A model generated the notes under the pieces. It saw nothing but the letters and a program-made list of their open reading frames with translations. It was not told where the DNA came from and did no database searches. Both the position numbers and the translations under genes were made by a program. A stretch of DNA of 64,000 bases from Candidatus Kerfeldbacteria bacterium (GTDB lineage Bacteria > Patescibacteriota > Patescibacteriia > SBBC01), in the NCBI GenBank assembly GCA_016207275.1, contig JACQPY010000012.1, positions 1,706 to 65,705 on the forward strand, given 5' to 3'. Shown piece after piece: positions 17,629 through 51,169 of the stretch; the first letter of the stretch is position 1; each line of letters starts with the position of its first letter.

Positions 17629-18454
17629 CCAGCTGGTGGCCAACCGCGCGGCCCTGAAAACCATCCTGGCGCAGTTGGGAATCAGGCCGCGGCGCAGCGC
17701 CGGCCAGCATTTTTTGGTTGACCCTCAAACCGTCGACGACTTAGTTGACGCGGCCGATGTCCGAGCGAGCGAGACCGTCCTCGAGGTTGGTCCGGGCTTG
17801 GGCGTGGTGACTGAGGCACTGGCAAATCGTGGCGCCACGGTACTGGCCATCGAGCTCGATCGAACGCTGGCGGCGTGGTTGACGAGACGGTACCGGGGAC
17901 GTCCAAATATCACCGTTGTTCAAGGTGACATCCGGCGCTGGCGCCTGCCCGAGTATGTCCAGGATGGCCGATACAAAGTGGTCTCGAGTTTGCCGTTCAA
18001 CGTCACCTCGCTCGTCCTGCGCCGGTGGCTTGAGCACCCGCCCCGGCCGACCGTGCTGAGTTTGCTGATCCAGAAGGAAGTGGCTGAACGGGTGACGGCG
18101 CCACCCGGCCGCATGAGCTTGCTGAGCGTATCAGTTCAGTACCTCGGGACGCCGACCATCGTTCGCCCGGTGTCACAAGAACTGTTCTGGCCGCCGCCCG
18201 AGGTTGACGGGGCGGTCATTCGCATCGAGGTCAAGCCGTTGCCGCCGGAAGCCGAACGGAAAAAACTGTGGCGGTTGGCGCGAATCGGCTATTCGGCTCG
18301 ACGAAAAATGTTGTACCGCAACCTGGCGGCTGGATTACGAATCGAGCCGGCCAAGGTTAACGACGCGCTACGGTCGGCGGGTCTTAACGAGGGCTGTCGC
18401 GCCCAAGATGTACGCGTTGAACAGTGGCTAGCGTTGGCCAAAAAGTTACTTTGA
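17618..18454 (+). CDS. rsmA: 16S rRNA (adenine1518/1519-N6)-dimethyltransferase
   Basis: 278 aa. GQHFLVD, VLEVGPGLGVVTEALA (SAM-binding) and LPFNVTS motifs of KsgA/RsmA. Confidence 0.9.
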   Translation: MPSSQLVANRAALKTILAQLGIRPRRSAGQHFLVDPQTVDDLVDAADVRASETVLEVGPGLGVVTEALANRGATVLAIELDRTLAAWLTRRYRGRPNITVVQGDIRRWRLPEYVQDGRYKVVSSLPFNVTSLVLRRWLEHPPRPTVLSLLIQKEVAERVTAPPGRMSLLSVSVQYLGTPTIVRPVSQELFWPPPEVDGAVIRIEVKPLPPEAERKKLWRLARIGYSARRKMLYRNLAAGLRIEPAKVNDALRSAGLNEGCRAQDVRVEQWLALAKKLL

Positions 18455-18479
18455 CGTGAACGCCTAGATGTGCTATAAT
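18451..18479 (+). promoter_or_regulatory. Near-consensus sigma70 promoter TTGACG-17-TATAAT driving the 18499-51169 gene supercluster
   Basis: TTGACG 18451-18456, 17-nt spacer, TATAAT 18474-18479. Same GTGCTATA context as the promoter at 4411. Confidence 0.6.
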
Positions 18480-18498
18480 TTTTGCATAAAATGAAACA

Positions 18499-19209
18499 AT
18501 GGAGCAGCGATTTTCTTCAGAAACTGAACGTCAGCCTGGAGCACCAGATTCAGGTGAATCATTGGAACGCGCGGCTCAACGAAAACGGTTGTTCACCGTC
18601 CTGGCCGCCATCGGTGGGGCGGCCTTAGTACTGGGCGTGGTCGGTTTAGTCAACACGATTACCTCGCCGTTTCCGCGTCCGACCGTGCCGAACACGAACG
18701 GTCAGGAGCGGGTGCTCGAGGAACTGAAGCAACAGGACACGGACGGCGATGGCCTGAAGGACTACGACGAGGTTTTCACGTACCGGACTAGCGCTTTTGT
18801 CCGCGACAGCGACAGCGACGGTTTGTCTGATGGCGACGAAGTGGCGGCGCGAGCCGATCCGAACTGTCCGCCGGGCCAGTCGTGCGGCGCGGTGGCCGTG
18901 ACTAACGTCAACATCAACGGCGTGATCAGCAATCCGACGGCCAGCGCCCTGCGTAAAGCGTTAAAGCAGGCGGGCGCGCCGGCCTACATTATTGACCAGA
19001 CCGACGACCAGACGTTGCTCGAGCAGTACCGTGGCGTCCTGGTCGGCACCAATGCCAACGTCAGCCTTAAGCAAAGCGATTTGACGAACCTTTCAGCGGC
19101 CCAGATTAGGGAGTTGCTCAGATCGAACGGCGTGGCCGACGACGCGTCGCTGGCCCAGATTGATGACGAAACCTTGATTGCCATCTATCAAGATGCCTTG
19201 TCGAATTAA
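18499..19209 (+). CDS. Membrane-anchored protein with thrombospondin type-3-like Ca-binding repeats
   Basis: 236 aa. TM LFTVLAAIGGAALVLGVVGLV. DTDGDGLKDYDE and DSDSDGLSDGDE (DxDxDGxxDxxE) motifs. Confidence 0.55.
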   Translation: MEQRFSSETERQPGAPDSGESLERAAQRKRLFTVLAAIGGAALVLGVVGLVNTITSPFPRPTVPNTNGQERVLEELKQQDTDGDGLKDYDEVFTYRTSAFVRDSDSDGLSDGDEVAARADPNCPPGQSCGAVAVTNVNINGVISNPTASALRKALKQAGAPAYIIDQTDDQTLLEQYRGVLVGTNANVSLKQSDLTNLSAAQIRELLRSNGVADDASLAQIDDETLIAIYQDALSN

Positions 19210-22200
19210 TGCCCGCTGTGAACGTTTATCGAAAAAAGCTGGCGACTAAACCGGGAACTGAGTTGAGCGTCTCTGACGGTCGGGCTTCACGCTCTCCGAC
19301 ACGGCGAACGCTGCCGTACTTCGCCGTACCGTTCGCCACGGTCGTGGTGATTGGCAGCTTGCTGTTGCTGCCGCGCGCCGTGCCAGTTAAAGCTTTCTTC
19401 CCTCCCTTTCTTAATATTGGTCAGGAACTTTCCACGGTAGTCGGGGTTGGTGTTCCGGTTACCGAAACCGGCAGCATTCCCCAGGCCAAGACCAATATCG
19501 TCAATCGGATCCGCGAGCGCCTTAAAGATCTGCTCAAGGTCGCCGGCGACGTCGCCTACAAAACGGGCGTCCGAATTTTCTACCAGCAGCTGACCAACGT
19601 CACCACCGAGTTTATTCGCACCGCCGGCACCGGCCAAAAACCAATTTTCATCACTGATCCGCACTACTGGGAAAAGGTTTTTGACGCCGCCCAGAACGAC
19701 TTTCTCGACTCGGTCGGCAAGCAAGTGTTTGGTATTGAGCTGAGCCGACCGCTCGATGCCGAGAAGGAAAAGCAGATTGGCTTGCTGGTGCGAGGCATTC
19801 TTAACCCCGGCACGGTCTGCGAGGACGACTGCCAGAAGCGGTACAACGAGAAGCAGGTTAGGATTAAAGAAATCCAACAAGACCTCGGCATCGTCAAGCG
19901 CATGGAACCGGATCCGAACGTCGATCCGAACTGTCCGAAGTGCATTCCCTGCCCGATTGCCGGCGACCCGAACAAGAACCCGGCCTGGGATTCAAAAGGT
20001 CAGCAGTTCATTGATAAAAAGAAATGTCAGGCCGTGCTCGGCGACATCCTGTCGATCGAACGCGCTCAAGTGACCAGGGACTACACCAACTGTACGAACT
20101 CATGCCGGCGGCAACGCGGGGCCGTCCGGACCGACCCGATCCTGAAAGAAGTCGTCGGCAACGAAGCCGTCGCCGCCGCGGTCCAGGAGTACTACGATCC
20201 GCGAAAGAACGACTTCGGCAACATCCTGGCGGTTCTCAACAAGGCGGCTGACCGAAGTCAGAGCGCCGTCCGCGCTGAACAGACTGCTTTCGGGACAAAC
20301 ATCGCGCCGAGCCGAACGACCGCCGGCATCATCACGGCCCCGGCCGTGTTGGTGGAAGAACGTGCCAAGAAGGCGCTTCAAACGGCGACCAACGACGTTG
20401 ACATCGTCACCGGCTCGCGAATTGCCGACGTGATCAGCAAGGCGATCGGCAACGCCTTGATCCAACGGATCACTCGCGAGTGGTTTAATCGCAAGTGCGG
20501 CTTAAACCCGGACGCCTGCCGTCAGCCGGTCGGCACGTCGCCACAAGCGAGGTTCTTGTTTGGCAACCAACCGGCCCAGCTGGCCGCCGACATCAAACCT
20601 GTCCAGATTGGTCGTAATGATATTGTCCTGGGCGAGCCGTCGCGGAATCCCGTGCCGACCGCGGACATCCTGGAAGCGAGTGGTTTGATCGATTCGCGAT
20701 TTCGACAGGCCATTGAACAGCGACTGACAGTTCGCGAAGCACTCGACCAGGGCTTTCTCGACGCGACTCGGACCTTTGGGTATGACCGGGAAGGTAAGGA
20801 GCCGCTCGATGGCTACCCCTACCAGAGCATTTTGTACTTGAAAAAGTCGCGAATCGTGCCGGTCGGTTGGCAACTAGTAGCCGAATACATCCGTCAAGCT
20901 GAACCTCAGGACACCAGCCTTGGTGAGCTGATTAACCAATTCTCGATGTGCGGTCAGGATGCTGCGCATGACGCTGATCCAGCAGCCACCAAAGCCTGCT
21001 CAAATAATCGAACGCAAGTTTGTGCGGCTGACAGAGACTGTACGCCGACGCCGGGCGGAACGTGTCTCTCGACGACGAGTACGTGTGTTGGTGGTCCGCA
21101 GCCGGGCGCGGCTTGTACGTCTGACGTTGACTGTGCGTTTCCTGCTCCGACGTGTATGGAAACCTACTCACCGAGTCCATTCTGCGGCTTAGTCGATCCA
21201 GACTGGGTCTTGAAAGCGCCACTGACCTACTGCCGTAAGCAAGGTGCCGGCGAAGAATTAGTGACCAGGATTTTCCTGTGCGACGAAGATACCAACGCCA
21301 ACGGCCGGATTGACTGCAGCGAGGGTGTCGGCGGCGGCGACATCGGCCATTTTGAAATTCAACGCAAAGACGAGGTCTGTGTCGATGAGCCGACCTGCGT
21401 GGCCGAGAATGAAGACGGTTCGTGCTTGTCGTATGGGTACTGCTTCCAGGATCGTCGCACGTTCAGGTTCGACGGCGACCGCTGTCCCTCGTACTACGCC
21501 TCGTGTCAGGCCTACGCCGATCCGGATGGCAACAGCGTGTCCTTTCTCAAAAAGACGATCGACGTCAATGGCTGCTCGTCGGACAGTGCCGGTTGCAGCG
21601 CTTTCTGCAGCGACCGGCGCGACAAGGACGGCAGTTGGCTGTGCACGTCCGATCCTGGCCGCGATCCGGCCGTGGCCGCCGCGGCGACCAAGTGTCCGGT
21701 CGGCGAAACCTGCACGTGTCGATTGCCGAGCGGTGAGACCTGCACGGTCGGCAACGGCACAGATAATTGCACCACTAATTCTGGCGCCCGCTGTACGCTG
21801 GGCGCGAACTACAGCTACTTCGACCGCGACGTTGAAGTCTGCAGTGAAACCGACGCCGGTTGCCGGGAATTCATTGACGCGAATGGCTCTGCGAACCTGC
21901 TCGCCAACGGCGGCTTCGAGCTCTTCGAGGGTACGGCTGATGACAGCGGCGCGGCCGCCGACGACGTGGTCAAAGGCTGGGGCGGCGTGACGGCATTTAT
22001 CAGTACCTCGCATGCCCAAGTCGTGACGTCGGACCTGGGGGTGACGAACAATAACAAGTCGGCTGTCCGCCTGCCGGCCACGGGCGGCTCGACGCAGGGG
22101 CTGGTTTTCACCAACGACCGGCCGTCGAATACGCCGGCCCGGCAAGGTATTGATACCGGGCGGCCGCTCAGCTTCCGGACGTTTACCTTGTCGTACTACG

Positions 22201-24959: not shown

Positions 24960-24961
24960 CT

Positions 24962-34767: not shown

Positions 34768-37700
34768 ATGGTTCTTATTAACTTCATCCAGCGCCACCAA
34801 AAACCAACCGCCGTCATCCTGGCGGTCGTCTTACTGTCGGCATTCTGGCTGGCCGTGCCGCATGAAGTTAAGGCCGTCGGCGAGGGCATCATCGCCAACA
34901 TCCTGTCGTGGCTGGCGTACCAGTTGATCACCCTGATGGCCAACCTGCTGGTGGTGGTGGTCAACATCTTGGTCGCCGTCGCCCAGTACAACAACTTCCT
35001 CGGCGCGCCGGCGGTTGAGCGCGGCTGGGTGATTGTCCGCGACATCGCCAACATGTTCTTCATTGTGGTTTTGCTGATCATCGCCTTCGGCACGATTTTG
35101 CGACTGGAAAACTACCGCTACAACCGCCTGCTGGCACGGCTCATCGTCATGGCCATCTTGGTTAACTTCTCCAAGTTCATCGCCGGTTTCTTCATCGACT
35201 TCGGCCAGGTCATCATGCTGACCTTTGTCAATGCCTGGCGTGACGTGGCCGCCGGCAACATCACCCACGCCCTCGGCCTGACCGAGATCATTCAGCTCCG
35301 CAACCAACCGCTGCCCAGCGGCCAGGAGATCAGTTCGGGAGCGGTGCTGACCGCGCTGCTGCTCGGCTTGTTCCTGGTGACGGTGGCCGTTATCGTCCTG
35401 GCGATCATGGCGATCGTCCTGATTTTGCGCGTCCTGGCCCTGTGGTTCTTGGTTGTCCTGTCGCCGCTGGCATACCTCTTCCGGACCTACCCGGCGACCG
35501 AGAAATATGCGGCCCGCTGGTGGCAGGAATTCGGCCGTTACGTCGTGGTCGGGCCGGTGATGGCGTTTTTGCTGTGGTTAAGCTTGGCGGTCATGACGGC
35601 GCCGGTGCAGTTTAGCGAAGAAGTGTTTACCGTCGTTAAAACTACCGAGGGATCGGCAGTGATCGAGCCGACCGACAGCGCCACCGCCAACAACGTGGCC
35701 GCCGCCATTTCGACCATTGGCCAGTCCGACAAGCTGTTGGGTTACATCACCGGTATTATGCTCCTGGTCGGCACGCTGATGATTACCCGCGAGCTGGGCG
35801 TGGCCGGCGGCCAGCTGGCTGGGCAGTGGGCCGAGAAGATTCGGGGGTTTGCCACCAAGGCGGCGGTGGTCGGGGGCGCTGGTGCGGCTTTCGGAGCGTT
35901 AGGAGTAGCTGGCGTGACGGTTGGCAGGCCGGCGGCCAAGCTGGCCGGCAAAGGGATTGCGGCTGGCGCAAAAGGGCTTGGCAATGCGATTATCGACCGT
36001 GCACAAGTTGCCCTGGGAGGAATTCCGCTCAGACCGAGCGTCTGGGCCGAGGGATTCAAGCGCGCCAGCGCCCGGCGTCGCCATGATTGGGAGGAAAAAC
36101 GTTGGCAAGCGGCGAACAAGAACATGGAAGAGGCGCTCAAGCCGGCGGTCGGCAAGAAGATGAGCGCTGCCCGGCGAGCCTGGAAATTCGCAGTTGGCGC
36201 CGCCGGTTCGCCGGAATACTTTAAGTATAATCTTCTGACTTTTGGCAACTTCGGTAAAATGATAGCTGGCCGAGGCGGCGAGGTGTTGGGCGGGGATTTC
36301 TCCGAAGCCAGCGAGGACTACAACCGGACGCGAGAGCGAGCCAAGGCCATGGCTCGCGAACGGGAACTAATGCAGGGCTCGCGCGACCTTGGACAGTTTT
36401 ATGTTCAGGAGACCGCTGGTCAACGCGTCCAGTCAGACGTTAATGCGGAGGCAGAAAAAATCAGGTCCGAGCGGACCCGCGATCTTCGCGCTGACGTCAA
36501 CTTCTTCGAAGAGAAGGACCACGAAGGAAAGGTCGTGCGACGCCTGCCGCTGGCTGAATACATCAGCGGTTTGATGCGCGATGAGGGGTATGATCCGACC
36601 TCAGGCGACGAGCGGACCGTGCGACGTCGAGCGGCCCTGGAAAAAGAGCATGATGAGCAGTTGGCGCGGTCACGCCTGGTGAAAGAGGAACAGCAAGGAC
36701 AGCTAACGGCCAAGGTCGCCGAGGTCGCCAAGGACCGGGCTGCCAACCCGGCCAGCCGCTATGGCCGTAAGACGGTCAAAAAGGACAAAGAAGAGGTCGA
36801 AGTCAGCTTCGCCGATGCACTGGATGAAGCCATGGACAAGAAGTTCCCTAAGAATTTTAATCGCTATCTAGAGTCTCAGGGGATTGATCCGCGCGCCAAG
36901 GATGATGGGACTAAGTTGAAGATTGAGGCACTCCGGCCGGGATACGAGGCGATTTTCAAGAAAGAGTTTGAGGACAATTGGAATAAGGAACAGGCTGAAG
37001 CCGAACTGGAGTTAAGTCCAGAATACCAGGATCCGATGGCCACGCGGGAGGAGCGTTATCGCCAGGAAATCCTGAAATCAGCGCCGGAAAACGAGCTCCG
37101 ACGGCGGGGACAAGCAGTGCATGAGGAAGAGGTTAAAAAGCTGCGCGATCAGGCAGCCGCGATCAGGGCCGGCGGATTAACCGAGGGGCAGCATGAACGG
37201 AGAGAGAAGGAGCTGATTGAGGTCATTAAGAAGCTCGAACAGATTGACAAGGATTTGAAGACCCACTCTCCTGGAACGCCGGAGTACTCGCGGCTGATGG
37301 AGGAGCGCGCCGAACGCGAAAAGCAACGGCAGCTGCTTGAGCGTTACCTCAAGCCGAAACCTGGTGAAAAACCGCCGCTGAACGACGATGAGAAGAAAGA
37401 AGGCGAGAAAGAAGCCGAGAAACTGGAAGAGGCAGCCAACCTCCAAGAAGGAATGGCTAAGCGTCGCGTGACCGATACTGAGCTGCGGTTGATGGACGAA
37501 GCCATAGACGCGCAGGAGAAGAAAGTGCGCGACCAGGCTAAGGTCGTCAGCCGGCTCCGTCCGGCCGTGCCCAAGGAACTGCGACGCGAGCTGCGCGCGT
37601 CGATTGCCGAGAAAAAGAAGGAAATTACGACTGAGCAGTGGCAGGAGCAGCTGTCAATTTTCGAGGACGCGGTTCGGCGCGGCGATGCGAGTACGGCTGC

Positions 37701-38424
37701 GGCCGCGGGTATCCGGGCGGCCGAGGATTTTAACTTGAATGAGTTTCAAACCAACTTAGGATACGATTCCGACGCTGAAGGCCTGAAACAGATGATAGAC
37801 GATTACTTCATCGGCAAACTGGGCATGTCCGAGGATCAGGCGCTGTCGATCGCCAACGACATGTCGCATGCCGCCGAAAAGGTCAACCACTGGGGAGTGG
37901 CGCGGGCAGTCAAGACCGACACCGTTACCGGTCGGCAGCACTTCCAGGATGAGCTTGATCGAGAAATGGAGGTAAGCGCTGAGATCCGGAAAGGCGACTT
38001 TGAAGGCACTATCCGTCGCTTTAATCGTCTGGCCTGGGGCAAAGAAGTGATTGGCGCCGGTACTGACATGGAGCGCGCCTCGCCAGCAGAACGCGCCGAG
38101 TACTATCGCCAGACCGGTGACCGCAGCTTCGTTTCTCTGCCTTACGGCCTGGCCTTCTTGGCTGAAAACTTCGGAAAGTCCGAGCGGAACATCAAAACCG
38201 GTCGGTTCAACCCCAACTATGCCACCAAGTTGTTCGACCCGGCAAACCGCCAGATGCTTGAAATGTTAGTAAAAGCGCTTGGTAATTTTACCCAGCTCGG
38301 GGATTCGCGTAAGGTCACGATGCCGGAAATCTTAGCACTCATACGGCAGTTCGGCGCCAGGGATCGCAGCGCGGCAGGCGATTTCGACCGCTTGCGAGAC
38401 TTCTGGCGCCGGTCCGGCCGCTAG
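34768..38424 (+). CDS. VirB6/TrbL-like polytopic membrane protein with a ~900-aa charged/coiled-coil cytoplasmic tail
   Basis: 1218 aa. The N-terminal ~330 aa hold at least 6 hydrophobic helices rich in aromatic and small residues, typical of TrbL/VirB6. The remainder is a highly charged, low-complexity K/E/R-rich region. Confidence 0.5.
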   Translation: MVLINFIQRHQKPTAVILAVVLLSAFWLAVPHEVKAVGEGIIANILSWLAYQLITLMANLLVVVVNILVAVAQYNNFLGAPAVERGWVIVRDIANMFFIVVLLIIAFGTILRLENYRYNRLLARLIVMAILVNFSKFIAGFFIDFGQVIMLTFVNAWRDVAAGNITHALGLTEIIQLRNQPLPSGQEISSGAVLTALLLGLFLVTVAVIVLAIMAIVLILRVLALWFLVVLSPLAYLFRTYPATEKYAARWWQEFGRYVVVGPVMAFLLWLSLAVMTAPVQFSEEVFTVVKTTEGSAVIEPTDSATANNVAAAISTIGQSDKLLGYITGIMLLVGTLMITRELGVAGGQLAGQWAEKIRGFATKAAVVGGAGAAFGALGVAGVTVGRPAAKLAGKGIAAGAKGLGNAIIDRAQVALGGIPLRPSVWAEGFKRASARRRHDWEEKRWQAANKNMEEALKPAVGKKMSAARRAWKFAVGAAGSPEYFKYNLLTFGNFGKMIAGRGGEVLGGDFSEASEDYNRTRERAKAMARERELMQGSRDLGQFYVQETAGQRVQSDVNAEAEKIRSERTRDLRADVNFFEEKDHEGKVVRRLPLAEYISGLMRDEGYDPTSGDERTVRRRAALEKEHDEQLARSRLVKEEQQGQLTAKVAEVAKDRAANPASRYGRKTVKKDKEEVEVSFADALDEAMDKKFPKNFNRYLESQGIDPRAKDDGTKLKIEALRPGYEAIFKKEFEDNWNKEQAEAELELSPEYQDPMATREERYRQEILKSAPENELRRRGQAVHEEEVKKLRDQAAAIRAGGLTEGQHERREKELIEVIKKLEQIDKDLKTHSPGTPEYSRLMEERAEREKQRQLLERYLKPKPGEKPPLNDDEKKEGEKEAEKLEEAANLQEGMAKRRVTDTELRLMDEAIDAQEKKVRDQAKVVSRLRPAVPKELRRELRASIAEKKKEITTEQWQEQLSIFEDAVRRGDASTAAAAGIRAAEDFNLNEFQTNLGYDSDAEGLKQMIDDYFIGKLGMSEDQALSIANDMSHAAEKVNHWGVARAVKTDTVTGRQHFQDELDREMEVSAEIRKGDFEGTIRRFNRLAWGKEVIGAGTDMERASPAERAEYYRQTGDRSFVSLPYGLAFLAENFGKSERNIKTGRFNPNYATKLFDPANRQMLEMLVKALGNFTQLGDSRKVTMPEILALIRQFGARDRSAAGDFDRLRDFWRRSGR

Positions 38425-39738: not shown

Positions 39739-40038
39739 ATGAGGTTCACGGTGCCTCGTCCGGCCAACACCACGGTAGCCGTCCAACGCTGCGGCTACGC
39801 TCGCTTCCGCGATCCGCGGACCGGGCAAGAAAGCTACACACTGCGGTTAGGTTCGGGATTTTATCCACGATGGCACTTGTATGCGGAAGAACGTGCTGAT
39901 GAGCTGGTGTTGAATTTGCACTTGGACCAGAAAAAACCGTCATACGGTGTTGGCCACGCGCATAGTGGCGAGTACGAAGGCGCGATTGTTGAAACAGAGA
40001 CTTTACGTTTGAAATCACTTTTGAACAACAGGAGTTAA
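39739..40038 (+). CDS. Hypothetical small protein
   Basis: 99-aa ORF, tightly spaced after the preceding gene. No recognisable motifs. Confidence 0.35.
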   Translation: MRFTVPRPANTTVAVQRCGYARFRDPRTGQESYTLRLGSGFYPRWHLYAEERADELVLNLHLDQKKPSYGVGHAHSGEYEGAIVETETLRLKSLLNNRS

Positions 40039-40097
40039 GAAAATTATCCTTGCTTGATAGGCAGACCGCGGCAATTCCACAAGTTATCCAAAAAGTT

Positions 40098-40131
40098 TCG
40101 AGGCCCTGATCACTTCGTATCAAGGCCTCGA
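40098..40131. terminator. Hairpin TCGAGGCC-(18 nt)-GGCCTCGA between convergent genes; candidate bidirectional terminator
   Basis: Perfect 8-bp inverted repeat, read directly. Confidence 0.4.
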
Positions 40132-40138
40132 TTGGCAT

Positions 40139-40327
40139 CTAATAGCCTGACTCAATTACTGCTCCAGCGGTGCCGATTATTTCTCCACAACTCTTGCAGA
40201 AGATGATGAAAACGAAATCCTCTCGTTTTCCCCCCGGTGCGCGGAGCGGAAACTCCCGGCCAATGTCCTTGTAATCGAATTCTATTCCTTCACATTCCGG
40301 ACACCTCGGCTCTTCCACTTTACTCAC
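40139..40327 (-). CDS. Small zinc-ribbon protein (CPEC...CKSC)
   Basis: 62-aa ORF with two CxxC pairs. GGAGG SD on the minus strand. The true start may be the internal GTG three codons downstream. Confidence 0.45.
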   Translation of the reverse strand: MSKVEEPRCPECEGIEFDYKDIGREFPLRAPGGKREDFVFIIFCKSCGEIIGTAGAVIESGY

Positions 40328-40522
40328 CTCCTTAAGGAACGAACCCTAGCTGGTAATTGAGCATCCTTTTGGCCAATTAGTATTTTAGTATTATTGAAGG
40401 AACTACTCTCGAACGAACAGGGAAGTATATAAGTTTGTACAAAAAAGTCAAGGTACTTCTCGACTCGGTCGCTAACGCGCCCTCGCTCGAAGAGCAAGCT
40501 TTTTTCTAACAAATCCACCGTT

Positions 40523-40549
40523 TTCAGGACGGCTGATTTATGGTATACT
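40523..40549 (+). promoter_or_regulatory. Candidate promoter with extended -10 (TGgTATACT) in an AT-rich divergent intergenic region upstream of the 40572 gene
   Basis: TTCAGG-15-TGGTATACT. The surrounding 240 nt are conspicuously AT-rich relative to the window. Confidence 0.4.
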
Positions 40550-40571
40550 ATAGCCACTTTTCCGCTACACC

Positions 40572-42326: not shown

Positions 42327-42328
42327 CC

Positions 42329-42841: not shown

Positions 42842-42845
42842 CGAT

Positions 42846-43547: not shown

Positions 43548-43662
43548 AGCTTGTAGCGGTTAGCTTTTAGGGACCCATCGAATAACCACTTGCCTGATGA
43601 AAATTAATCACTCTTCGCTACCGCTACCAGCTACCAGCTAAAAGCTATCAGCTTCTTCAACC

Positions 43663-45564
43663 ATGGCTGACATCAACCTATCCAAACTTAAAGCTGGTCA
43701 GACCCTGCCGACCAAGCAGGAAATCCAGCGTGAACGACCGCCGGCGCCGGTCAGCGCCGCCGAGCTGATCGAGGCCGAGCGGATCTACCGTCGCGGCGTC
43801 ATTTCAGTCCGTGACCTAATCGCCCCGGCGGCCCTGCGCGTCGATACCAACTTCATTCAGCTTGGCGCCAAGCACGTTCGGACCCTGTTTGTCGTGACCT
43901 ACCCGCGTTACATTGCGGTCGGCTGGTTTGCGCCGATCATCAACTTCAATTCGCCGCTTGACATCGGCATGTTCTTCTACCCGGTCGAGTCGAAAATCAT
44001 TTTGAAGCAGCTGAAGAACAAGGTTGGTGCGCTCGAGGCGCAAATCCTGTCCGACGCCGAGAAGGGCGCGCCGCGTGACCCGATCCGCGAGACGGCGCTG
44101 CGCGATATCGAGAAGCTGCGCGACGACCTGACCCAAGGCACCGAGCGGTTTTTCCAGTTCGCCCTCTACGTTACGCTCTACGCCAACTCGCGCGACGAGC
44201 TCGATCGCTTGACCGAAAAGATCGAGGGCTTGTTCGGCTCGCGGTTGGTCTACAGCAAGCGGGCGTTATTCCAGGCAGAGCAAGGATTTGTCTCGACCGT
44301 GCCGCTCGGCCTTGACCAACTACTGGTCACCTTCAACATGAACTCCAGCCCGGTGGCCAGTTCGTTCCCCTTCATCTCCAGCGACTTGACCAGCGACAAC
44401 GGCATTCTCTACGGCATTAACCGACACAACAACTCGTTGATTCTGTTCGATCGGTTTAGCTTGCAGAACGCCAATTTTACGGTTTTTGCCACCTCGGGCG
44501 CCGGCAAGAGTTACGCGGTTAAGTTAGAAATTCTCCGTTCGATGATGTTCGGCACTGATATGATTGTCATCGATCCGGAGAACGAGTACAAGTATTTATC
44601 GGACGCGGTTGGCGGTACCTACGTCAGCATTTCGCTTAACTCCGATTCGAAAATCAACCCGTTTGACTTGCCGCGAGCCGTCCACGGCGATGAAAAGCCG
44701 GCCGACATCATCCGCTCCGCGGTCATTACCCTGAAATCGCTCATTCGCTTGATGCTGGGCGAGCTGACTAACGAAGAAGATTCGATCATTGATCGAGCGC
44801 TGTTAGAAACCTACGCCAAGAAAGACATCACCCCGGACAGTGACCTGGCGACGGTTGAACCGCCACTGATGAAGGACTTTGAAGAGGTCCTGGCCGGCAT
44901 GGTCGGGGCGGAAAATCTGGTCCAGCGGCTGAAGAAGTACACCGAAGGCACCTTTGCCGGCTTGTTCAACAGCCCAACCAACGTCGAGGTCAACAACCAG
45001 CTGATGGTTTTCTCGGTTCGGGATTTGGAAGACGAGCTGCGGTCGATCGGCATTTCGATGATTGTCAGCTACATTTGGAACGTCGCCCGCTCCAAGCTCA
45101 AGAAGCGCATTCTGACGATTGATGAGGCTTGGTGGCTGATGCAGAACGAAGATTCGGCCAAGTTCATCTACTCGCTGGTCAAGCGGGCCCGTAAGTACTA
45201 CCTCGGCGTGACCACCATCACCCAGGACGTCAATGATTTCCTCCGCTCGCCCTACGGTCAGGCGATCGTCAACAACTCGGCCTTGCAGCTGTTGATGAAG
45301 CAGTCGCCGGCCGGCATCGATATTGTGGCCAAAACCTTTTTGCTGACCCAGAGCGAGCGCTACCTCTTGCTCGAAGCTGGCGTCGGCGAGGGGATCTTCT
45401 TTGCCGGCGCCAAGCACGCCGCCATCAAGGTGGTGGCCAGTTACACCGAGGATCAAGTGATTACCTCCGACCCGCGGCAGCTGCTGGAGATCGAGGAAGC
45501 CAAGAAGGAGTTTGAAGAGTCGCTGGCCCGCGGTGAGGTTCCAACCACCGCCGATGTCCGCTGA
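43663..45564 (+). CDS. virB4: VirB4/TrbE/CagE-family T4SS ATPase (second piece; contains the ATPase domain)
   Basis: 633 aa. DLIAP...YIAVGWF, DIGMFFYP, Walker A FATSGAGKSYAV, IVIDPENEY, TQ sensor region. Confidence 0.85.
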   Translation: MADINLSKLKAGQTLPTKQEIQRERPPAPVSAAELIEAERIYRRGVISVRDLIAPAALRVDTNFIQLGAKHVRTLFVVTYPRYIAVGWFAPIINFNSPLDIGMFFYPVESKIILKQLKNKVGALEAQILSDAEKGAPRDPIRETALRDIEKLRDDLTQGTERFFQFALYVTLYANSRDELDRLTEKIEGLFGSRLVYSKRALFQAEQGFVSTVPLGLDQLLVTFNMNSSPVASSFPFISSDLTSDNGILYGINRHNNSLILFDRFSLQNANFTVFATSGAGKSYAVKLEILRSMMFGTDMIVIDPENEYKYLSDAVGGTYVSISLNSDSKINPFDLPRAVHGDEKPADIIRSAVITLKSLIRLMLGELTNEEDSIIDRALLETYAKKDITPDSDLATVEPPLMKDFEEVLAGMVGAENLVQRLKKYTEGTFAGLFNSPTNVEVNNQLMVFSVRDLEDELRSIGISMIVSYIWNVARSKLKKRILTIDEAWWLMQNEDSAKFIYSLVKRARKYYLGVTTITQDVNDFLRSPYGQAIVNNSALQLLMKQSPAGIDIVAKTFLLTQSERYLLLEAGVGEGIFFAGAKHAAIKVVASYTEDQVITSDPRQLLEIEEAKKEFEESLARGEVPTTADVR

Positions 45565-45640
45565 TCCCGTTAGAAAGCCTTTCGCTACAACGAGAAATAG
45601 TCGACTCTTATGAAACAACACAGGCTGACTTTCTAACGGG

Positions 45641-46183
45641 ATGATGCGACGCTGGCTGATTATCAGCGCGTTGTTGGCGGCGGCGGGAGCGGCGGCGCTG
45701 GTCGTCGTGCGACAGCCGAAGACCGGCCCGGCGACGAATACGGCGCCGATTTCTACGGTCAACCGAACAGTCATCCCTGAAAACACCAACGCCGAACCCG
45801 CGCCAACGACCGACCAACTTTTAGCCACGGCGCGAGTTTTTGCCGAGCGGTTCGGTTCGACCTCGAGCGACGCGCCGACCGCGCACCTCCAGGCTGTCCT
45901 ACCGTTTTGCAGCTCCGCTTTGACCCAGTCATTTCGCCGATTAATCAACCAGCCGACCAACTCGCCGGGCAACGCCACCCGTACGACCAGTCGTGCCTTG
46001 GCTTTCGCAACGCCGTCGGTCGATGAACGGCTTGGGTTAGCGGAGGTGGTAGTTACGCTTCAGCGGCAGGAGCAAATCGGGACTGAACCAGCGACGATTT
46101 ACAACCAAGAGCTGGCGCTCCAGTTCGTTCGCGAAAGCGGCGCCTGGAAAGTGAACGTCGCGACCTGGGGTAAGCAATCGTAA
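45641..46183 (+). CDS. Hypothetical secreted/membrane-anchored protein
   Basis: 180 aa. N-terminal hydrophobic segment LIISALLAAAGAAALVVV. Confidence 0.45.
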   Translation: MMRRWLIISALLAAAGAAALVVVRQPKTGPATNTAPISTVNRTVIPENTNAEPAPTTDQLLATARVFAERFGSTSSDAPTAHLQAVLPFCSSALTQSFRRLINQPTNSPGNATRTTSRALAFATPSVDERLGLAEVVVTLQRQEQIGTEPATIYNQELALQFVRESGAWKVNVATWGKQS

Positions 46184-46189
46184 CGTCGC

Positions 46190-46894
46190 ATGGCAGTCAA
46201 AGCCTCCAACCCGAAGCAAGCGATCAAGGAACAAGAACGTCGGTTCCGCGAAGAAACGCGGCGCCTGCGTCAGGAGCCAGCCACCGGCAGCGAGGGGTAC
46301 ACTAACGTCTACCTTAAAGAACCTGTCGAGCCCGAAGAGGAGCAGCCAGCCGATGATCAAGCTTCCGGCCAAGTTTCCACAGCTCGATTTCCTCGGCGGC
46401 AGTCGTTCCGGCCAGCCAGCGTTGAAGAAGAACCTTCGCCCACCCCCAAAACAAGCGGCCAGACCGGGCCAGGCCAAGGACCTGAGCCTGCACCCACCGC
46501 CGCTGAGCCGAGCGGACGGACTTCAACTGAGCAGCTGTCTCGCGGCGCCCAGTTTGCCGAGCGAACCAGGGCTTTGCAACAAGCGGCCGGCACGGCTCAG
46601 CAAGCGGCTCAGACTGAGCGTACGGTGGCAGCGACTGCCCGCGGAATAGCGGCGACTGCCCGGGGCGCCGCAGCGGTAGGACGGGGCATCGCCTTACTTT
46701 TCTCTCCACCAACCTGGCCGGTCTGGATCGGCGTGCTGATCGCCGCCAGCATCTTTTTCGTCGTCCTCTTGGTGCTGGCCGCGGCCTGCATTCCACTCGG
46801 CACCGGCGAAGGATTGACCGAAAAAGCTGCGCTGGGGAGCGCCATCCTGAGCCTGCGATTGGCGCTGGGAATTGATTGCGGCGGGTCGCCATGA
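46190..46894 (+). CDS. Hypothetical protein with a low-complexity N-terminal half and a C-terminal two-helix membrane anchor
   Basis: 234 aa. WPVWIGVLIAASIFFVVLLVLAAACIPLG. Possibly pilin-like. Confidence 0.4.
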   Translation: MAVKASNPKQAIKEQERRFREETRRLRQEPATGSEGYTNVYLKEPVEPEEEQPADDQASGQVSTARFPRRQSFRPASVEEEPSPTPKTSGQTGPGQGPEPAPTAAEPSGRTSTEQLSRGAQFAERTRALQQAAGTAQQAAQTERTVAATARGIAATARGAAAVGRGIALLFSPPTWPVWIGVLIAASIFFVVLLVLAAACIPLGTGEGLTEKAALGSAILSLRLALGIDCGGSP

Positions 46895-48381
46895 AACGCA
46901 ACCGCGCGGTTAGCCTGATCCTCGCCGCGGTAGCGTGGTCAGCCTTGATCACAACGGTCAGCGCCCAGATCCGCCCGGCCGAACTTGATGCTGGCGACGG
47001 CGCCGGCACTACCGCCCCGCAGCTGGTTGACTTCGGCTCTTGCACGTACCAAACCGACGATGGCCGGGAGTCGTGCGTCAATAACGTGACCGCCACCGAT
47101 TGCGCCAAAAGAAAGGGAGGCCAGTTCGCCGCCCTGACCAGCTGCCGGCTGACCTTCACGCCGAACGTGCCGATTCCGGGATTGTTTGAGGGGACGCAGC
47201 GCGTTGATGAAACGCTGCTCGGTCGGTACATCAGCGGCTTCTACGTTTTCTTCGCCGGCGTGGCCGGGATTTTGGCGGTGGTGATGATGATGTGGGGCGG
47301 TTTCCACTACATTACGGCCGCCGGCAACCCGCAGCGGATGAACGAAGGCAAGAGCATCATTAGCGGCGCAATCATCGGACTGATCCTAGTGCTCATCTCG
47401 TACCTGTTGCTGAACGCCATTAATCCGCGGTTGATTCAGTTCCAGGTGCCGAGCTTACGGTACATTCCGCAAATTTTGGTGGCCGATCAGTACTGTGAAG
47501 CGCAGGGGCCGAAAGCCATTGCCGCCGCTCAGCAGGCCGGGGCCGAGTGCGGCGACTACGTTGATTACGAAGACAACGGCGTTCGACGGACGTGCATTTC
47601 CTTGTACATTCCCGGTCAGATAGCCTTACCCTGGGACCAGCAGCTGGCTTGCTTCCCACGGGTAGGAATTGACAAAGTCACCGACCCCAGCGGCAAAACC
47701 TCGACCAGTACGCACACCGTCTACGAACGGCGGAAAGCGGCGGGCAAAGACGGCGTTTGCGAAAACAATAACTACACCGCTGACGATCGGTGTGTTTATA
47801 CGCAGCGGATTCTCGGTTTGCAAACGTGGCTGGCCGGAGCGTGTAAAAAGGCGAAGTATGAAACCAAAATAACAGCTCCAAGTCAGGGAAAGGATATTTG
47901 TCACTACACCAAGTTTTTGTTTTGCCCGACCAGCGATTCGGAACAGGTGCGGTGTGATGCGGGGGTGCGCACACGCGAGACGGACTGCTGGAGTGGTGGG
48001 AAGCCTAGAGAGATGACTTCTGCTCCAACCGCCTTTTCCGGTTTGACCGCTGTTTGTCGAGATCCCAACGTCGGCACCCGGCCAATCGAATTAATCGACG
48101 GTATCTGTTGTCAGGCTAACCTAAAACGCGATATATTTTGTACGAGTCGAGAAGTTGAAGATACCGTTGAGTTGTCGACAGAAGAGTGTGCCGCTCTCAG
48201 TGCCGATGCGGGTACGCCGTTTGCCCAAGTGTGTTACACTGAACGCCTCGGTGACCGGGGAACGATTCGAAGGATCTGTGAGGACGTCGTTACCCGATGC
48301 GATTTACCGAAGAAATGCAAGGCGCGAATCGATTTCATTTTTGTCAACACCGACCCGCCGGGCTCCCCGCTGTTCAAATAA
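46876..48381 (+). CDS. Secreted Cys-rich protein containing a VirB2/TrbC-like (pilin-like) two-helix hydrophobic hairpin; paralog of the 49637 gene
   Basis: 501 aa. Signal peptide, then TFTPNVPIPGLFEG...FYVFFAGVAGILAVVMMMWGGFHYITAAGNPQRMNEGKSIISGAIIGLILVLISYLLLNAINP (about nt 47170-47430) is about 70% identical to the equivalent segment of the 49637 product. 14+ Cys in the C-terminal half. Confidence 0.5.
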   Translation: MRRVAMKRNRAVSLILAAVAWSALITTVSAQIRPAELDAGDGAGTTAPQLVDFGSCTYQTDDGRESCVNNVTATDCAKRKGGQFAALTSCRLTFTPNVPIPGLFEGTQRVDETLLGRYISGFYVFFAGVAGILAVVMMMWGGFHYITAAGNPQRMNEGKSIISGAIIGLILVLISYLLLNAINPRLIQFQVPSLRYIPQILVADQYCEAQGPKAIAAAQQAGAECGDYVDYEDNGVRRTCISLYIPGQIALPWDQQLACFPRVGIDKVTDPSGKTSTSTHTVYERRKAAGKDGVCENNNYTADDRCVYTQRILGLQTWLAGACKKAKYETKITAPSQGKDICHYTKFLFCPTSDSEQVRCDAGVRTRETDCWSGGKPREMTSAPTAFSGLTAVCRDPNVGTRPIELIDGICCQANLKRDIFCTSREVEDTVELSTEECAALSADAGTPFAQVCYTERLGDRGTIRRICEDVVTRCDLPKKCKARIDFIFVNTDPPGSPLFK

Positions 48382-48396
48382 TCCTGCCCCTTCACC

Positions 48397-49635
48397 ATGG
48401 CTATTAACTGGAAACGACTGCTGCTGGTGCTCGGGTTCCTCTTGGTTACCATTGGTATTGGCGTGACGATTTACTTCGTCTTCTTCCGCAATATCTTCGG
48501 TCCGCCGGCCGCTAACCAGAACATCAACGGCGTCATTTTCCCGCTGGCGAATGAAAACCGCAATGCCGGCGTGGGACCAGCTAACGTTAATGCCTTGCCA
48601 AACGTCAACGCGGCGGTCGGTCAACCGCGGCCAGTGGCTGACGGCGGGCCGACGCAGGTGGTGCCGATCGTCAGCACGCTGCCGGGCGGGGCGACGCTGG
48701 CCAACAACGGCCGTGATCTACTCTACTACGATCCGCGGACCGGCAAGTTCTACCAAATTTCTCCCGACGGCCGGACCCGGACCGAGCTGACGCCGGACCG
48801 CTATCCGGCGGCCGACAAGGTGACCTGGGCGCCGCTTCGTGACAAGGCGGCGATCGAGTTTCCCGACGGCAGCAAGTTCATCTACGACTTTCGACAGCAG
48901 AAGCAGTATACCCTGGCCCCGGAAATGGAAGAAATCACTTTCTCGCCGACCGGCGACAAGATTTCGTTCAAGTTCATTGGCGACGACCCGGCTGACCGGT
49001 TGTTGGTGACGGCAAATTTCGACGGCACCGGCGCGACCACCATTGAGCCGCTGGCCGACAAAGCTGACCAGTTTGACGTTAACTGGTCACCGCTCGGCAA
49101 CGTCGTCGCTACCTTCCGCGAATCGATCGATGCCGATCGGCAGCGGGTCATCCCGATTGGGTTATTGGGGGAAAATTTTTCCTCCTTTAACGTCCCTGGT
49201 CGCGGTTTCCAACACATCTGGTCGACCGACGGCAGTAACATTTTGTTCAGCGTCTTCCGCAAAGACACCGGCTACAATCCAAACTTGTACATTGCCAGCG
49301 GGCGGACCGAATCGCTCGGCAACAACATGATTAACCTGGACTTGCAAACGTGGCCGGACAAGTGCGTCTTCGGGTCGGCGGCCGCCTTGTTCTGCGCCGT
49401 GCCGCAGTACTTGGAACAGGGAACCGGCTTGTTCCCGAACCTGGCCAGCGAAGTGCCGGACGACTTCTACCGAATCGACTTGGCCACTGGTCAGAAGCAG
49501 CTGATCGCCCGGCCGGTCAATGCCGACGGCGAGTCGTCTTACACCGCCTCGCAGCTGATACTGTCAGCCGATGAGACCGTGCTGTACTTCTTTGACCAGC
49601 GGACCAATCAGGTCCAGAAAATTCAGTTGAAGTAG
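48397..49635 (+). CDS. Membrane-anchored beta-propeller (TolB/PD40-like) protein
   Basis: 412 aa. N-terminal TM LLLVLGFLLVTIGIGVTIYFVFF. Repeated hydrophobic/Gly/Asp beta-strand patterns. Confidence 0.45.
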   Translation: MAINWKRLLLVLGFLLVTIGIGVTIYFVFFRNIFGPPAANQNINGVIFPLANENRNAGVGPANVNALPNVNAAVGQPRPVADGGPTQVVPIVSTLPGGATLANNGRDLLYYDPRTGKFYQISPDGRTRTELTPDRYPAADKVTWAPLRDKAAIEFPDGSKFIYDFRQQKQYTLAPEMEEITFSPTGDKISFKFIGDDPADRLLVTANFDGTGATTIEPLADKADQFDVNWSPLGNVVATFRESIDADRQRVIPIGLLGENFSSFNVPGRGFQHIWSTDGSNILFSVFRKDTGYNPNLYIASGRTESLGNNMINLDLQTWPDKCVFGSAAALFCAVPQYLEQGTGLFPNLASEVPDDFYRIDLATGQKQLIARPVNADGESSYTASQLILSADETVLYFFDQRTNQVQKIQLK

Positions 49636-49636
49636 C

Positions 49637-51169
49637 ATGCGACGCTGGTGGGTGGTGTTAAGCTTGACAGTAGGGCTGACGATTGCGGTCGGCGCGTCGG
49701 CTCAGAGTACTGGCTGCTGCGTTACGTCAAGCCAAACGTGTGTCCCAAACCTAACCCAGTTGGCCTGCGATCAAACCTACCCGGGCGGCAGCGCCGGCGG
49801 CAACTTTTACGCAGTCGCCAGCTGCAACGACGTGCCTTTTTGCGCCACGCTGGGCAAGTGCGAACGGACCAGCCCGGCTGACTGCAAGAACCTGAAGCGC
49901 TGGGAGTGCGACCAGTTGAGCGGCCAGGGCTACAATTTTTTTGCGAACCAGGTTTGCGGCGGCGGCGTGGCCACGGGACGTTGCTGCGCCGAGGACAAAT
50001 CAGCGCGTAACCCGTCGTGTCGCGAAGACCTTGATCGTAATAGTTGCCAGTTGATTGGCTGGGAGTACTACACCACCGCCTGCAGCGCTGTCGCTCACTG
50101 TCCGCAAGCGCGGTCCGGAACGCCGTTCGGCAAAGTCATCGGTTCCTGTACCTTGCCTGACGGCACGTGCACGAATAGCTTGAGCCTCGAAGACTGTACT
50201 AAGCGGCAAGGCAAGTTTGCAAAGGATCAGGTATGCCCGTTATTTTTCACGCCCAACGTCCCAATTCCGGGGCTGTTCGAAGGCGAGCAGCAGGTCAGCG
50301 GCACGTTATTTTCCCGCTACCTCGGCGCTTTTTTCGTCTACTTCATCGGCGTGGTCGGTATCTTGGCCGTGGTCATGATGATGTGGGGCGGGTACCACTA
50401 CATCGTGTCAGCCGGAAATCCGCAGAAGATGAACCAGGGCAAGGAAATCATCAGCGGGGCGATCATTGGCTTGGTACTGGCCCTAACCTCATTCTTACTG
50501 TTGCAGACGATTAACCCGGCCTTGGTCAACTTTCGCGGGATTCTACCGATCTACATCGGCCAGATTTTAGTCAGGGAAGAGCGCGAGGCCACGCCGCTGA
50601 AGAAAGACGTGGCGACCAAAGCGGACGTGAGCACCTCGACGCTCAAATCGATATTGTCGCTGGTCAAGCAAAATAGCTACGATCGGATGGTTCTATCTGA
50701 AGCGAACAACGATAAGGAGGTTGCCTATCGGGCCCTGTCCATCCTCTTCATTGAGTCGTCAGGCGTTGCTAACGCAAAATCAATCGCCAACGCTTACGGA
50801 CTGATGCAGTTGCTTCCGGCGACAGCGGAAACCTGCGGCGTCGCTGTCAACGATCTGTTCGATCCAGCCAAGAACATCAAGGCCGGCGTTTGTTACCTCA
50901 AGAGTCTCTTGAGCAATCCTTGCCCGACGCCGGAACAGATGAAAAAAAGAAATGTCGTGTGCCGAGTTGGTGAGGTTTGCAAAAAAAGCGAGATCAAGTT
51001 TGTCTACGCTGCCTACAACGGCGGATCAGCCGCAAACTTCTGTTCCAGCACTTGTCTCGGCCAAACCTGGTGGCAGTGCACGGAAAACCCTGGATATGAG
51101 GAAACGAGAGTCTACGCTCAAAAGGCTCAGCTGGTGTATGACTGGCTGTGGGAGCAGAAGGTGTACTAG
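49637..51169 (+). CDS. Tripartite protein: Cys-rich secreted N-domain, pilin-like hydrophobic hairpin, then a C-terminal lytic transglycosylase (SLT/VirB1-like) domain
   Basis: 510 aa. Signal peptide. Pilin-like block FFTPNVPIPGLFEGEQQV...MMMWGGYHYIVSAGNPQKMNQGKEIISGAIIGLVLALTSFLLLQTINP. SLT motifs ESSGVANAKS...AYGLMQLLPATAETCGV...AAYNGG. Confidence 0.6.
   Translation: MRRWWVVLSLTVGLTIAVGASAQSTGCCVTSSQTCVPNLTQLACDQTYPGGSAGGNFYAVASCNDVPFCATLGKCERTSPADCKNLKRWECDQLSGQGYNFFANQVCGGGVATGRCCAEDKSARNPSCREDLDRNSCQLIGWEYYTTACSAVAHCPQARSGTPFGKVIGSCTLPDGTCTNSLSLEDCTKRQGKFAKDQVCPLFFTPNVPIPGLFEGEQQVSGTLFSRYLGAFFVYFIGVVGILAVVMMMWGGYHYIVSAGNPQKMNQGKEIISGAIIGLVLALTSFLLLQTINPALVNFRGILPIYIGQILVREEREATPLKKDVATKADVSTSTLKSILSLVKQNSYDRMVLSEANNDKEVAYRALSILFIESSGVANAKSIANAYGLMQLLPATAETCGVAVNDLFDPAKNIKAGVCYLKSLLSNPCPTPEQMKKRNVVCRVGEVCKKSEIKFVYAAYNGGSAANFCSSTCLGQTWWQCTENPGYEETRVYAQKAQLVYDWLWEQKVY

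Follow-up and report, generated by a model that had tools for sequence, protein, structure and literature searches.

The 64-kb stretch of DNA analysed here (the window, whose positions are used throughout) belongs to a metagenome-assembled genome of a Candidatus Kerfeldbacteria bacterium, a member of the Patescibacteria or candidate phyla radiation (CPR) that we place in the GTDB class ABY1. Between 18451 and 51169 the window carries 16 plus-strand genes in nearly gapless succession, which encode a TSP3-repeat protein, three very large surface proteins (giants 1, 2 and 3) and, directly behind these, the components of a type IV secretion system (T4SS), beginning with an extended VirB6-like protein. 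The only minus-strand gene in this region is a small zinc-ribbon open reading frame (ORF). A first-pass annotation, made from the sequence alone, had described the plus-strand run with its one interruption and seven stop/start junctions inside it, all of which are correct, and the episymbiont type of small-genome bacterium that it expected agrees with an origin in the Kerfeldbacteria. Its TSP3, PrgI, VirB4, BNR and SLT assignments, and those of two pilins, were upheld by Pfam and NCBIfam searches.

Gene order and predicted transcription units of the cluster

The genes and promoters of the cluster are listed in Table 1. The promoter that had been proposed at 18451 (TTGACG-17-TATAAT, here P1) was confirmed, and it ends 20 nt ahead of the first ATG, at 18499. 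Of 72 related loci, 57% have a promoter match at 10 or more of 12 consensus positions in the 200 nt that precede the TSP3 homologue, compared with 5% for background windows and 2%, 9% and 10% upstream of giant 1, virB6 and prgI, respectively. From the TSP3 gene through the 99-aa gene the gaps between genes are −1, 2, 4, 4, 3 and 3 nt, the first of these being an overlap of the TSP3 stop codon with the giant 1 start codon (TAATG). A 533-nt AT-rich spacer then splits the series of junctions into two runs, and from the 584-aa gene through the last gene the gaps are 2, 4, 115, 76, 6, −4, 15 and 1 nt; pilin-like protein 1 probably starts at the ATG at 46891, in an ATGA overlap.

Table 1. Genes and promoters of the Kerfeldbacteria cluster, in window positions.
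Feature	Position	Strand	Evidence and remarks
Promoter P1	18451..18479	+	TTGACG-17-TGnTATAAT; 11/12 consensus matches, TG before −10; start of unit 1
TSP3-repeat protein, 236 aa	18499..19209	+	Pfam TSP3_bac 1.8e-8; N-terminal membrane anchor, transmembrane helix 33-51 (predicted)
Giant 1, 1916 aa	19209..24959	+	95 Cys (5%); Pfam CBM_4_9 8.9e-9, residues 1353-1458
Giant 2, 1718 aa	24962..30118	+	Pfam PSII_BNR 3.4e-13, BACON_2 5.8e-14, Pur_ac_phosph_N 3.8e-16
Giant 3, 1546 aa	30123..34763	+	81 Cys (5.2%); Pfam Pur_ac_phosph_N 3.8e-13
Extended VirB6-like protein, 1218 aa (100% identical to NCBI HY567_01990)	34768..38424	+	Polytopic N-terminal membrane domain and ~800-aa tail
Conserved cytoplasmic protein, 435 aa	38428..39735	+	Behind virB6 in relatives; no Pfam or PDB match
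Conserved 99-aa protein	39739..40038	+	Last gene of unit 1; no PDB match
Zinc-ribbon ORF, 62 aa	40139-40327	-	CxxC...CxxC; in 533-nt spacer
Promoter P2	40521..40549	+	TTTTCA-17-TGnTATACT; in AT-rich spacer before 584-aa gene; start of unit 2
Conserved cytoplasmic protein, 584 aa	40572..42326	+	Three domains, Pro-rich linkers; ahead of prgI in most related loci; no Pfam or PDB match
PrgI/VirB3-like membrane protein, 170 aa	42329..42841	+	Pfam PrgI PF12666 1.1e-7, 32.7 bits (cut-off 27)
TrsD, 233 aa	42846..43547	+	Homologous to VirB4 N-terminal domain; NCBIfam
VirB4 ATPase, MPF-FATA type, 633 aa	43663..45564	+	Pfam P-loop_TraG 4.3e-28
Membrane-anchored protein, 180 aa	45641..46183	+	VirB8/PrgL-like (NTF2 fold) candidate, weak matches
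234-aa protein	46190..46894	+	Disordered N-terminus, two C-terminal transmembrane helices; poorly conserved
Pilin-like protein 1	46891..48381	+	Pfam T4SS_pilin PF18895 6e-11, 42.6 bits (cut-off 26.6)
Membrane-anchored extracellular protein, 412 aa	48397..49635	+	Same-position homologues: faint or weak PD40 and beta-propeller matches
Pilin-like protein 2 fused to lytic transglycosylase	49637..51169	+	VirB1-like function; SLT 5e-15, 55.5 bits; T4SS_pilin 1e-11, 44.9 bits

The first-pass annotation had read the cluster as one unit transcribed from 18451. The spacer contains a second promoter-like sequence, P2, and TTT(T/C)CA-17-TGnTATAAT is present in the spacer before the 584-aa homologue of the close relatives L001, L002 and L007; because of this second, conserved promoter, co-transcription of the whole 32.7 kb from P1 is unlikely. 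From this arrangement we predict no fewer than two transcription units, each behind a conserved promoter, of which unit 1 (from P1) would comprise the genes for the TSP3 protein, giants 1–3, VirB6 and the 435-aa and 99-aa proteins, and unit 2 (from P2) would run from the 584-aa gene through the pilin-SLT gene. The boundary between them coincides with the breakpoint of the split loci of some relatives (below).

The zinc-ribbon ORF in the spacer has its own promoter-like site (40451..40424), a terminator hairpin with a 13-bp stem (40131..40098) and a strong AAGGAG ribosome-binding site, a kind of site that the surrounding T4SS genes do not show. No counterpart was found in the related loci by tblastn, and as a part of the system it was ruled out by this lack of conservation; it looks like a lineage-specific insertion into the spacer between the units and probably stands outside the system.

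The giant proteins and their linkage to virB6

The repeats of the TSP3 protein are, by family assignment, of the calcium-binding thrombospondin type 3 kind. The giants that follow it had been annotated as secreted proteins that are rich in cysteine or carry a BNR propeller, and this was borne out: all three have Sec-type signal or anchor N-termini, giants 1 and 3 contain 5% cysteine, and the propeller is found in giant 2. Giant 1 begins with a 34-residue stretch and a single hydrophobic helix (a signal anchor), continues with a conserved, mostly helical membrane-proximal region to about residue 580, and is Cys-rich beyond that point, where the motifs C-x5-6-G-C-x2-[YF] and C-x4-D-C recur and two beta-sandwiches follow. 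One of the sandwiches scores 36.3 bits against the Pfam family CBM_4_9 (cut-off 25.9), and the profile of the giant family matches the carbohydrate-binding module (CBM) CBM22 of Xyn10C in the PDB (3e-5). The other resembles CBM22, CBM4 and CBM16 by fold (Foldseek 2e-7, TMt 0.62–0.70) in an AlphaFold model of residues 1–1200 that was built from 14 homologues and is of low confidence (pLDDT 47, pTM 0.28); it is the sole stretch of the model that was matched and the only usable one, and no part of the helical N-terminal domain is usable there. That N-terminal domain is shared by at least 560 clusters (50% identity), and almost all of these are proteins of 1600–3600 aa that have it close to the N-terminus.

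Giant 2 has a cleavable-looking signal peptide, followed by a BNR/Ycf48-like beta-propeller (the match to Ycf48 among PDB sequences is 1.6e-11), BACON and fn3-like domains. Giant 3 combines a signal anchor and a PKD-like C-terminus with fn3-like domains and Cys-rich knots. Searches of the PDB with the sequences and profiles of giants 1 and 3 gave otherwise nothing meaningful, NCBIfam adds nothing for the giants, BLAST detects no paralogy among the three, their C-termini have no LPxTG motif, and Pfam finds no polymer adhesin domain in them. In many relatives a single protein of about 2600–3260 aa is colinear with giant 1 (residues 45–1913) and then giant 3 (435–1516), so that giant 1 corresponds to the first two thirds, and this part of giant 3 to the C-terminal third, of the single giants of about 3000 aa. 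Since the two are fused into one protein in so many relatives, we argue that giants 1 and 3 act together. Giant 2 is a lineage-restricted insertion between them that is found in a Kerfeldbacteria-like subset and is missing from loci in which giant 1 is joined to giant 3. Among ten fused giants, CBM_4_9 is present in nine, a dockerin in four and PA14 in one.

From the CBM4/22-like, BACON and BNR modules, together with the PA14 and dockerin modules of relatives, we infer that the giants bind glycans, and their Sec-type N-termini, many cysteines and lack of a sortase motif suggest that they stay on the surface of the cell that makes them. They are under purifying selection: comparison of giants 2 and 3 with a relative that has a VirB6 of 55% identity gives dN ~0.22 against dS >1.2. 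In that relative the identity of giant 1 reaches 80%, so that it is better conserved than VirB6. Two thiol-redox genes were seen near loci of this type, a DsbA/thioredoxin-like gene directly after the cluster in a relative with a complete genome (L005 22655-23189) and, about 10 kb downstream of the cluster in the window, a membrane-associated AhpC/Redoxin/thioredoxin-like gene (60682-61239, minus strand); either could serve disulfide formation in Cys-rich surface proteins.

The linkage of giants to T4SS genes that the first-pass annotation described extends to relatives. A giant with a CBM_4_9 domain lies just upstream of virB6, in the same order, on six of six contigs that carry a VirB6 homologue. 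A wider VirB6-based scan with one genome per species gave 80 loci (from Kerfeld-, Falkow-, Uhr-, Buchanan-, Veblen- and Komeilibacteria and other Patescibacteria, a few records bearing different labels that may be wrong), and in 44 of the 55 species loci with at least 8 kb of upstream sequence a homologue of giant 1 or 3 is encoded on the same strand within 10 kb upstream of virB6. Large ORFs (≥1300 aa) are present upstream of virB6 in 43/55 loci and downstream in 1/46. The reverse scan, of metagenomes with the giant profile, gave 78 loci; here 61 of 62 loci have the TSP3 gene immediately upstream of the giant, 44 of 51 have virB6 downstream of it (37 of them at a distance of no more than 1.5 kb), and VirB4 is encoded within reach in 14 of 33. 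A TSP3 gene and virB6 likewise flank two distant giants (29% identity). The 37 loci for which both flanks are available divide into 22 with giant and VirB4, nine with VirB4 only, six with the giant only and none with neither, and in the split loci the set TSP3-giant-VirB6-435-aa stays intact, the break coming after the 435-aa gene and not between giant and virB6. In a Kerfeldbacteria relative (L004 14754-23336) the place of prgI and virB4 behind TSP3, giant, VirB6 and a 423-aa protein is taken by a run of five genes, with PEP-utilizers domains and a HAD hydrolase.

The interpretation that we favour, with moderate confidence and on the strength of sequence comparisons, is that this is a Patescibacteria-type T4SS with a dedicated surface module of glycan-binding giants that probably contacts the host cell. 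Several observations weigh against it. The coupling of giant and virB6 is frequent, not obligatory, since VirB6-VirB4 loci without an upstream giant make up 9 of the 37 and giants without a downstream virB6 number 7 of 51. The genes for KsgA and for LeuRS-Sua5-MFS also hold their place beside the locus, with clearly unrelated functions, so adjacency alone is no proof of a common function, and in small, slowly rearranging genomes conserved order is by itself weak evidence. Moreover, giants of this kind are missing from the cluster of the Saccharibacteria system for which genetic tests exist, no fold can be recognised in the greater part of giants 1 and 3, and the CBM-like modules are the one feature that points to the binding of host glycans.

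The giants and the TSP3 protein could instead be general surface proteins, forming an S-layer-like coat or harvesting glycans, that are neighbours of the T4SS through frozen gene order and share only a promoter with it. The exceptions just listed fit such an arrangement, as does the fact that housekeeping genes (ksgA, sua5 and leuS) are syntenic with the locus even in distant relatives, and surface proteins that process glycans typically carry CBM, BACON, BNR and dockerin modules, whatever their setting. We nonetheless regard it as rather unlikely: the virB6 junctions are of 4 nt or less with no promoter between giant and virB6, the giant remains with virB6 and the 435-aa gene, and not with ksgA alone, when a locus is broken, and the large ORFs show the upstream/downstream asymmetry given above.

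The secretion apparatus and its chromosomal setting

The protein encoded directly behind giant 3 had been assigned to VirB6. Its match to Pfam TrbL/VirB6 (E 0.006, 16.9 bits) is under the cut-off of 25.9, and its homologues carry PF04610/PF19590. The assignment is upheld despite the sub-threshold Pfam score because AlphaFold gives a confident model (residues 19–1218, 66 homologues, mean pLDDT 85.2) for which all of the top five matches in the PDB are to TrwI/VirB6 of the R388 stalk (7o3v, 8rt9; Foldseek E 4.9e-3 to 5e-2, probability 0.99–1.00, TMt 0.33–0.45), to which the likeness is that of the membrane domain. The tail is Cys-free, charged and helical, is probably cytoplasmic, and gave no significant structural match when the model was compared with the PDB. 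The two hypothetical proteins noted earlier as paralogous, of 435 and 584 aa, are indeed related (E 1e-11, through the N-terminal domain of the former). In its C-terminal domain the 435-aa family is in turn similar to a portion of the tail of VirB6 (hhalign probability 77%, E 2e-5), which hints at a shared domain or an interaction; profile comparison shows no such likeness for the 584-aa family. The 99-aa protein that closes unit 1 is 69–71% identical in close relatives by BLAST and 42–51% in more distant ones, with 18 invariant residues.

TrsD matches positions 90–282 of the NCBIfam model VirB4_plasma (6.5e-11) and, under the curated cut-off, the TrsD model itself (4.7e-7). Its homologues carry PF26593 (TraC-like) and are 50–92% identical across the related loci, and searches of the PDB with the sequence and profile of the family found nothing meaningful. 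The VirB4 protein covers positions 292–892 of the same VirB4_plasma model, scores 342.4 bits (cut-off 325) against conju_CD1110 over positions 178–729 of 752, and is 65–96% identical to the VirB4 of related Patescibacteria loci. What had been described as a split VirB4 is thus a TrsD and VirB4 gene pair that is kept in all related loci, and the reading of it as a broken gene or pseudogene was rejected on the grounds of this conservation and of the colinearity of the pair with a full-length VirB4 model.

The small secreted or membrane proteins that the first-pass annotation placed behind VirB4 are present, and one of them, of 180 aa, is more specifically probably VirB8/PrgL-like. A profile of its family aligns with PrgL (7aed) over nearly the whole domain at E 0.5, and single members show weak matches to NTF2_YvbJ (three members, 3e-5), TcpC (1.4e-3) and VirB8 (1.8e-3); a homologue search with the protein returned three relatives. 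The 234-aa protein had no BLAST match in the related loci. The two pilin-like proteins are paralogous, as annotated, and 52% identical over the pilin region; at about 500 aa they are far above the usual pilin size, with a VirB2-like two-helix hairpin between Cys-rich ectodomains. The 412-aa protein between them is probably a beta-propeller.

The annotation had found no VirD4, relaxase or VirB11 and had argued that the locus is not a classical conjugative element, and both statements stand. Among the ORFs taken as genes in the 64-kb window there was no match to VirD4/type IV coupling protein (T4CP), relaxase, VirB11 or integrase families, and no family match to replication functions. The cluster is preceded by plus-strand genes for S15, PNPase, LeuRS, Sua5, a major facilitator superfamily (MFS) transporter and KsgA, and followed on the minus strand by genes for RecG and pentose-phosphate enzymes; the neighbourhood LeuRS-Sua5-MFS-KsgA ... 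RecG is common to the window and its relatives. The G+C content of the window is about 58%, and every gene of the cluster matches KsgA in G+C and in third-position G+C (GC3). Recent horizontal transfer was excluded by this uniform composition and by the synteny with relatives, and judged by the same features the locus is chromosomal and vertically inherited in Candidatus Kerfeldbacteria. An integrative and conjugative element (ICE), or the remnant of one, that moves DNA might be considered because VirB4, TrsD, PrgI and the pilin-like proteins are nearest to conjugation proteins of monoderm ICEs and plasmids. We hold this to be very improbable, given the absence of relaxase, T4CP and integrase matches in the 64 kb, G+C and GC3 values equal to those of flanking housekeeping genes, occupation of the same chromosomal site in many species and purifying selection on all genes, and the published survey of the phylum comes to the same verdict for the whole clade (PMC12102498).

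Some features of the flanks were noted in passing. The LeuRS gene (11132-14116, plus strand) encodes an inserted ASCH domain (residues 285–385, Pfam 2.3e-6), and its orthologue in a distant relative (L088 1-2883) has a NUDIX domain instead; the G+C fraction falls to about 0.50 in the interval 12–16 kb of the window and is 0.58 elsewhere. A gene at 7045-7461 (plus strand) encodes a 23S rRNA intervening-sequence protein (a bAvd-like four-helix bundle) and neighbours a gene for a Mg-chelatase-like (ComM-type) ATPase. Right after the stop codon of the last cluster gene, at 51167-51262 (plus strand), there are about 10–13 TTAGG pentamers, one per 8 nt, an array that TRF reports with period 8 and 9.6 copies, and also with period 23, and that has no Rfam match. 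The next ~700 nt, up to recG (51263-51980), contain no convincing gene, although a near-consensus minus-strand promoter (TTGACA-16-TATAGT, 51978..51951) just beyond the recG stop is directed into them; their two small ORFs have no Pfam match and no tRNA or Rfam match was found there, and a small RNA or protein that escaped recognition may be encoded in this interval. Scans of the whole window likewise gave no tRNA gene and no Rfam match.

Relation to other T4SSs and possible roles of the giants

Among the closest known systems is the patescibacterial T4SS of Southlakia epibionticum (SEML1_0006-0019), without which this species cannot grow as an epibiont (Wang et al. 2023, PMC10633639). Its cluster encodes two VirB6-like proteins with helical-repeat tails, an NTF2-like protein, PrgI, a TrsD-like protein, VirB4, a lysozyme and pilins. 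A survey of the phylum by Quinonero-Coronel et al. (2025, PMC12102498) places the VirB4 proteins in a distinct clade near the mating-pair formation class MPF-FATA and reports TrsD, VirB3, VirB6 and arrays of VirB2-like pilins, with VirB8 rare and nearly all of it in ABY1; the TrsD and VirB4 pair is the commonest T4SS component, relaxases are almost absent, T4CP genes are distant from virB4, and the neighbours include ksgA and, in ABY1, recG. The window has in common with these systems an extended VirB6 whose helical tail is long, PrgI/VirB3, TrsD beside VirB4, VirB2-like pilin genes, a cell-wall hydrolase and a chromosomal site. The 180-aa protein is a candidate for the NTF2/VirB8-like component. 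Because the published parts list fits, as do the neighbours ksgA and recG and the absence of relaxase and T4CP genes from the vicinity of virB4, the T4SS part of the window is, by these comparisons, a member of the known Patescibacteria T4SS, derived from monoderm conjugation machinery.

The first-pass annotation had called the locus as a whole uncharacterised, which does not hold for its T4SS part (PMC10633639, PMC12102498) and does hold for the module of TSP3 protein and giants, for which we found no literature report of giant proteins beside Patescibacteria T4SS genes. What appears to be new is this module directly upstream of virB6, which the published survey missed, and the predicted two-unit layout. 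The window and most of the ABY1-type relatives sampled have the TSP3 gene and one to three giant Cys-rich CBM proteins before virB6, whereas Southlakia has none. In addition, the pilin-like proteins of the window are of about 500 aa with Cys-rich ectodomains, one of them fused to SLT, compared with ~100–140 aa for the Southlakia pilins, and the window has the paralogous 435-aa and 584-aa cytoplasmic proteins and the conserved 99-aa protein.

The MPF-FATA systems of pCF10 and pIP501 have homologues of VirB4, TrsD, PrgI, VirB6, the candidate VirB8-like protein and the hydrolase of the window, but the window lacks a relaxase and coupling protein and has pilin-like genes, which are lacking in the Gram-positive systems. 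The adhesins of pCF10 are encoded in the transfer region, upstream of the channel genes. The giants differ from its adhesin PrgB in having an N-terminal helix anchor, no LPxTG motif or polymer adhesin domain and an unrelated sequence, so any likeness is one of proposed role only. Gram-positive T4SSs rely on large surface adhesins that bind polymers of the partner envelope (PMC12857230). VirB6 paralogues of the Rickettsiales (Anaplasma, Rickettsia), as described in PMC12857230 and PMC7648143, also combine a membrane domain with a very large hydrophilic extension; they belong to other lineages and other T4SS classes, with MPF-T in diderms, whereas the tail in the window is Cys-free, helical and probably cytoplasmic, and its giant extracellular parts are separate genes. 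The R388 stalk consists of VirB5 and VirB6, and it is conceivable, by analogy only, that an extracellular partner encoded beside virB6 is an analogue of VirB5; no VirB5 homologue was detected.

Taken as a host-contact module of the T4SS, the giants would be anchored in the membrane beside VirB6 and grip glycans of the host envelope, and so would hold the T4SS channel and the pilin-like structure against that envelope, in a role akin to that of PrgB-type adhesins or of the VirB5 and pili of other T4SSs. The SLT domain would open the peptidoglycan, and the long VirB6 tail with the 435-aa and 584-aa proteins could form a cytoplasmic platform that replaces a locus-encoded coupling protein. A doubtful elaboration, drawn by analogy, makes the TSP3 protein and giants built-in extracellular subunits, in which the helical domain of giant 1 would dock onto the VirB6 ring in the manner of VirB5 and the Cys-rich CBM body of about 3000 aa would be the host-penetrating or gripping tip of a T4SS that has adapted to life as an epibiont; because loci exist where the module stands alone, it is also suggested that the TSP3-giant-VirB6-435-aa unit may work apart from VirB4.

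The first-pass annotation had left it open whether the giants are cargo or adhesins of the machine. Of these, a part in adhesion or host contact is the more likely from their sequences, and cargo is the weaker option, since all three have Sec-type signal or anchor N-termini. As cargo they would first be exported by Sec, and in a second step the T4SS would set them free or push them onto the host, as Ptl does with pertussis toxin; Ptl likewise lacks a coupling protein (PMC12857230). The giants' place in one unit with VirB6 and the cleavable-looking signal peptide of giant 2 are in keeping with this. It is improbable all the same, as giants 1 and 3 and the fused forms of about 3000 aa have an N-terminal hydrophobic anchor with no clear cleavage site, and as their size and some 90 cysteines per protein, probably disulfide-bonded, make passage through a T4SS channel unlikely from what is generally known of T4SS substrates.

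In the one species tested, epibiotic growth requires the Patescibacteria T4SS, a machine whose role has been called completely unknown (PMC11665869, PMC12857230). The published survey detected no adhesins (PMC12102498), and we describe here a large, conserved family of giant surface proteins that usually share a unit with VirB6, together with further uncharacterised conserved components, namely the 435-aa and 584-aa paralogues and the 99-aa protein. The giants would thus be a concrete candidate for the host-contact part of the T4SS in a major environmental class, ABY1.

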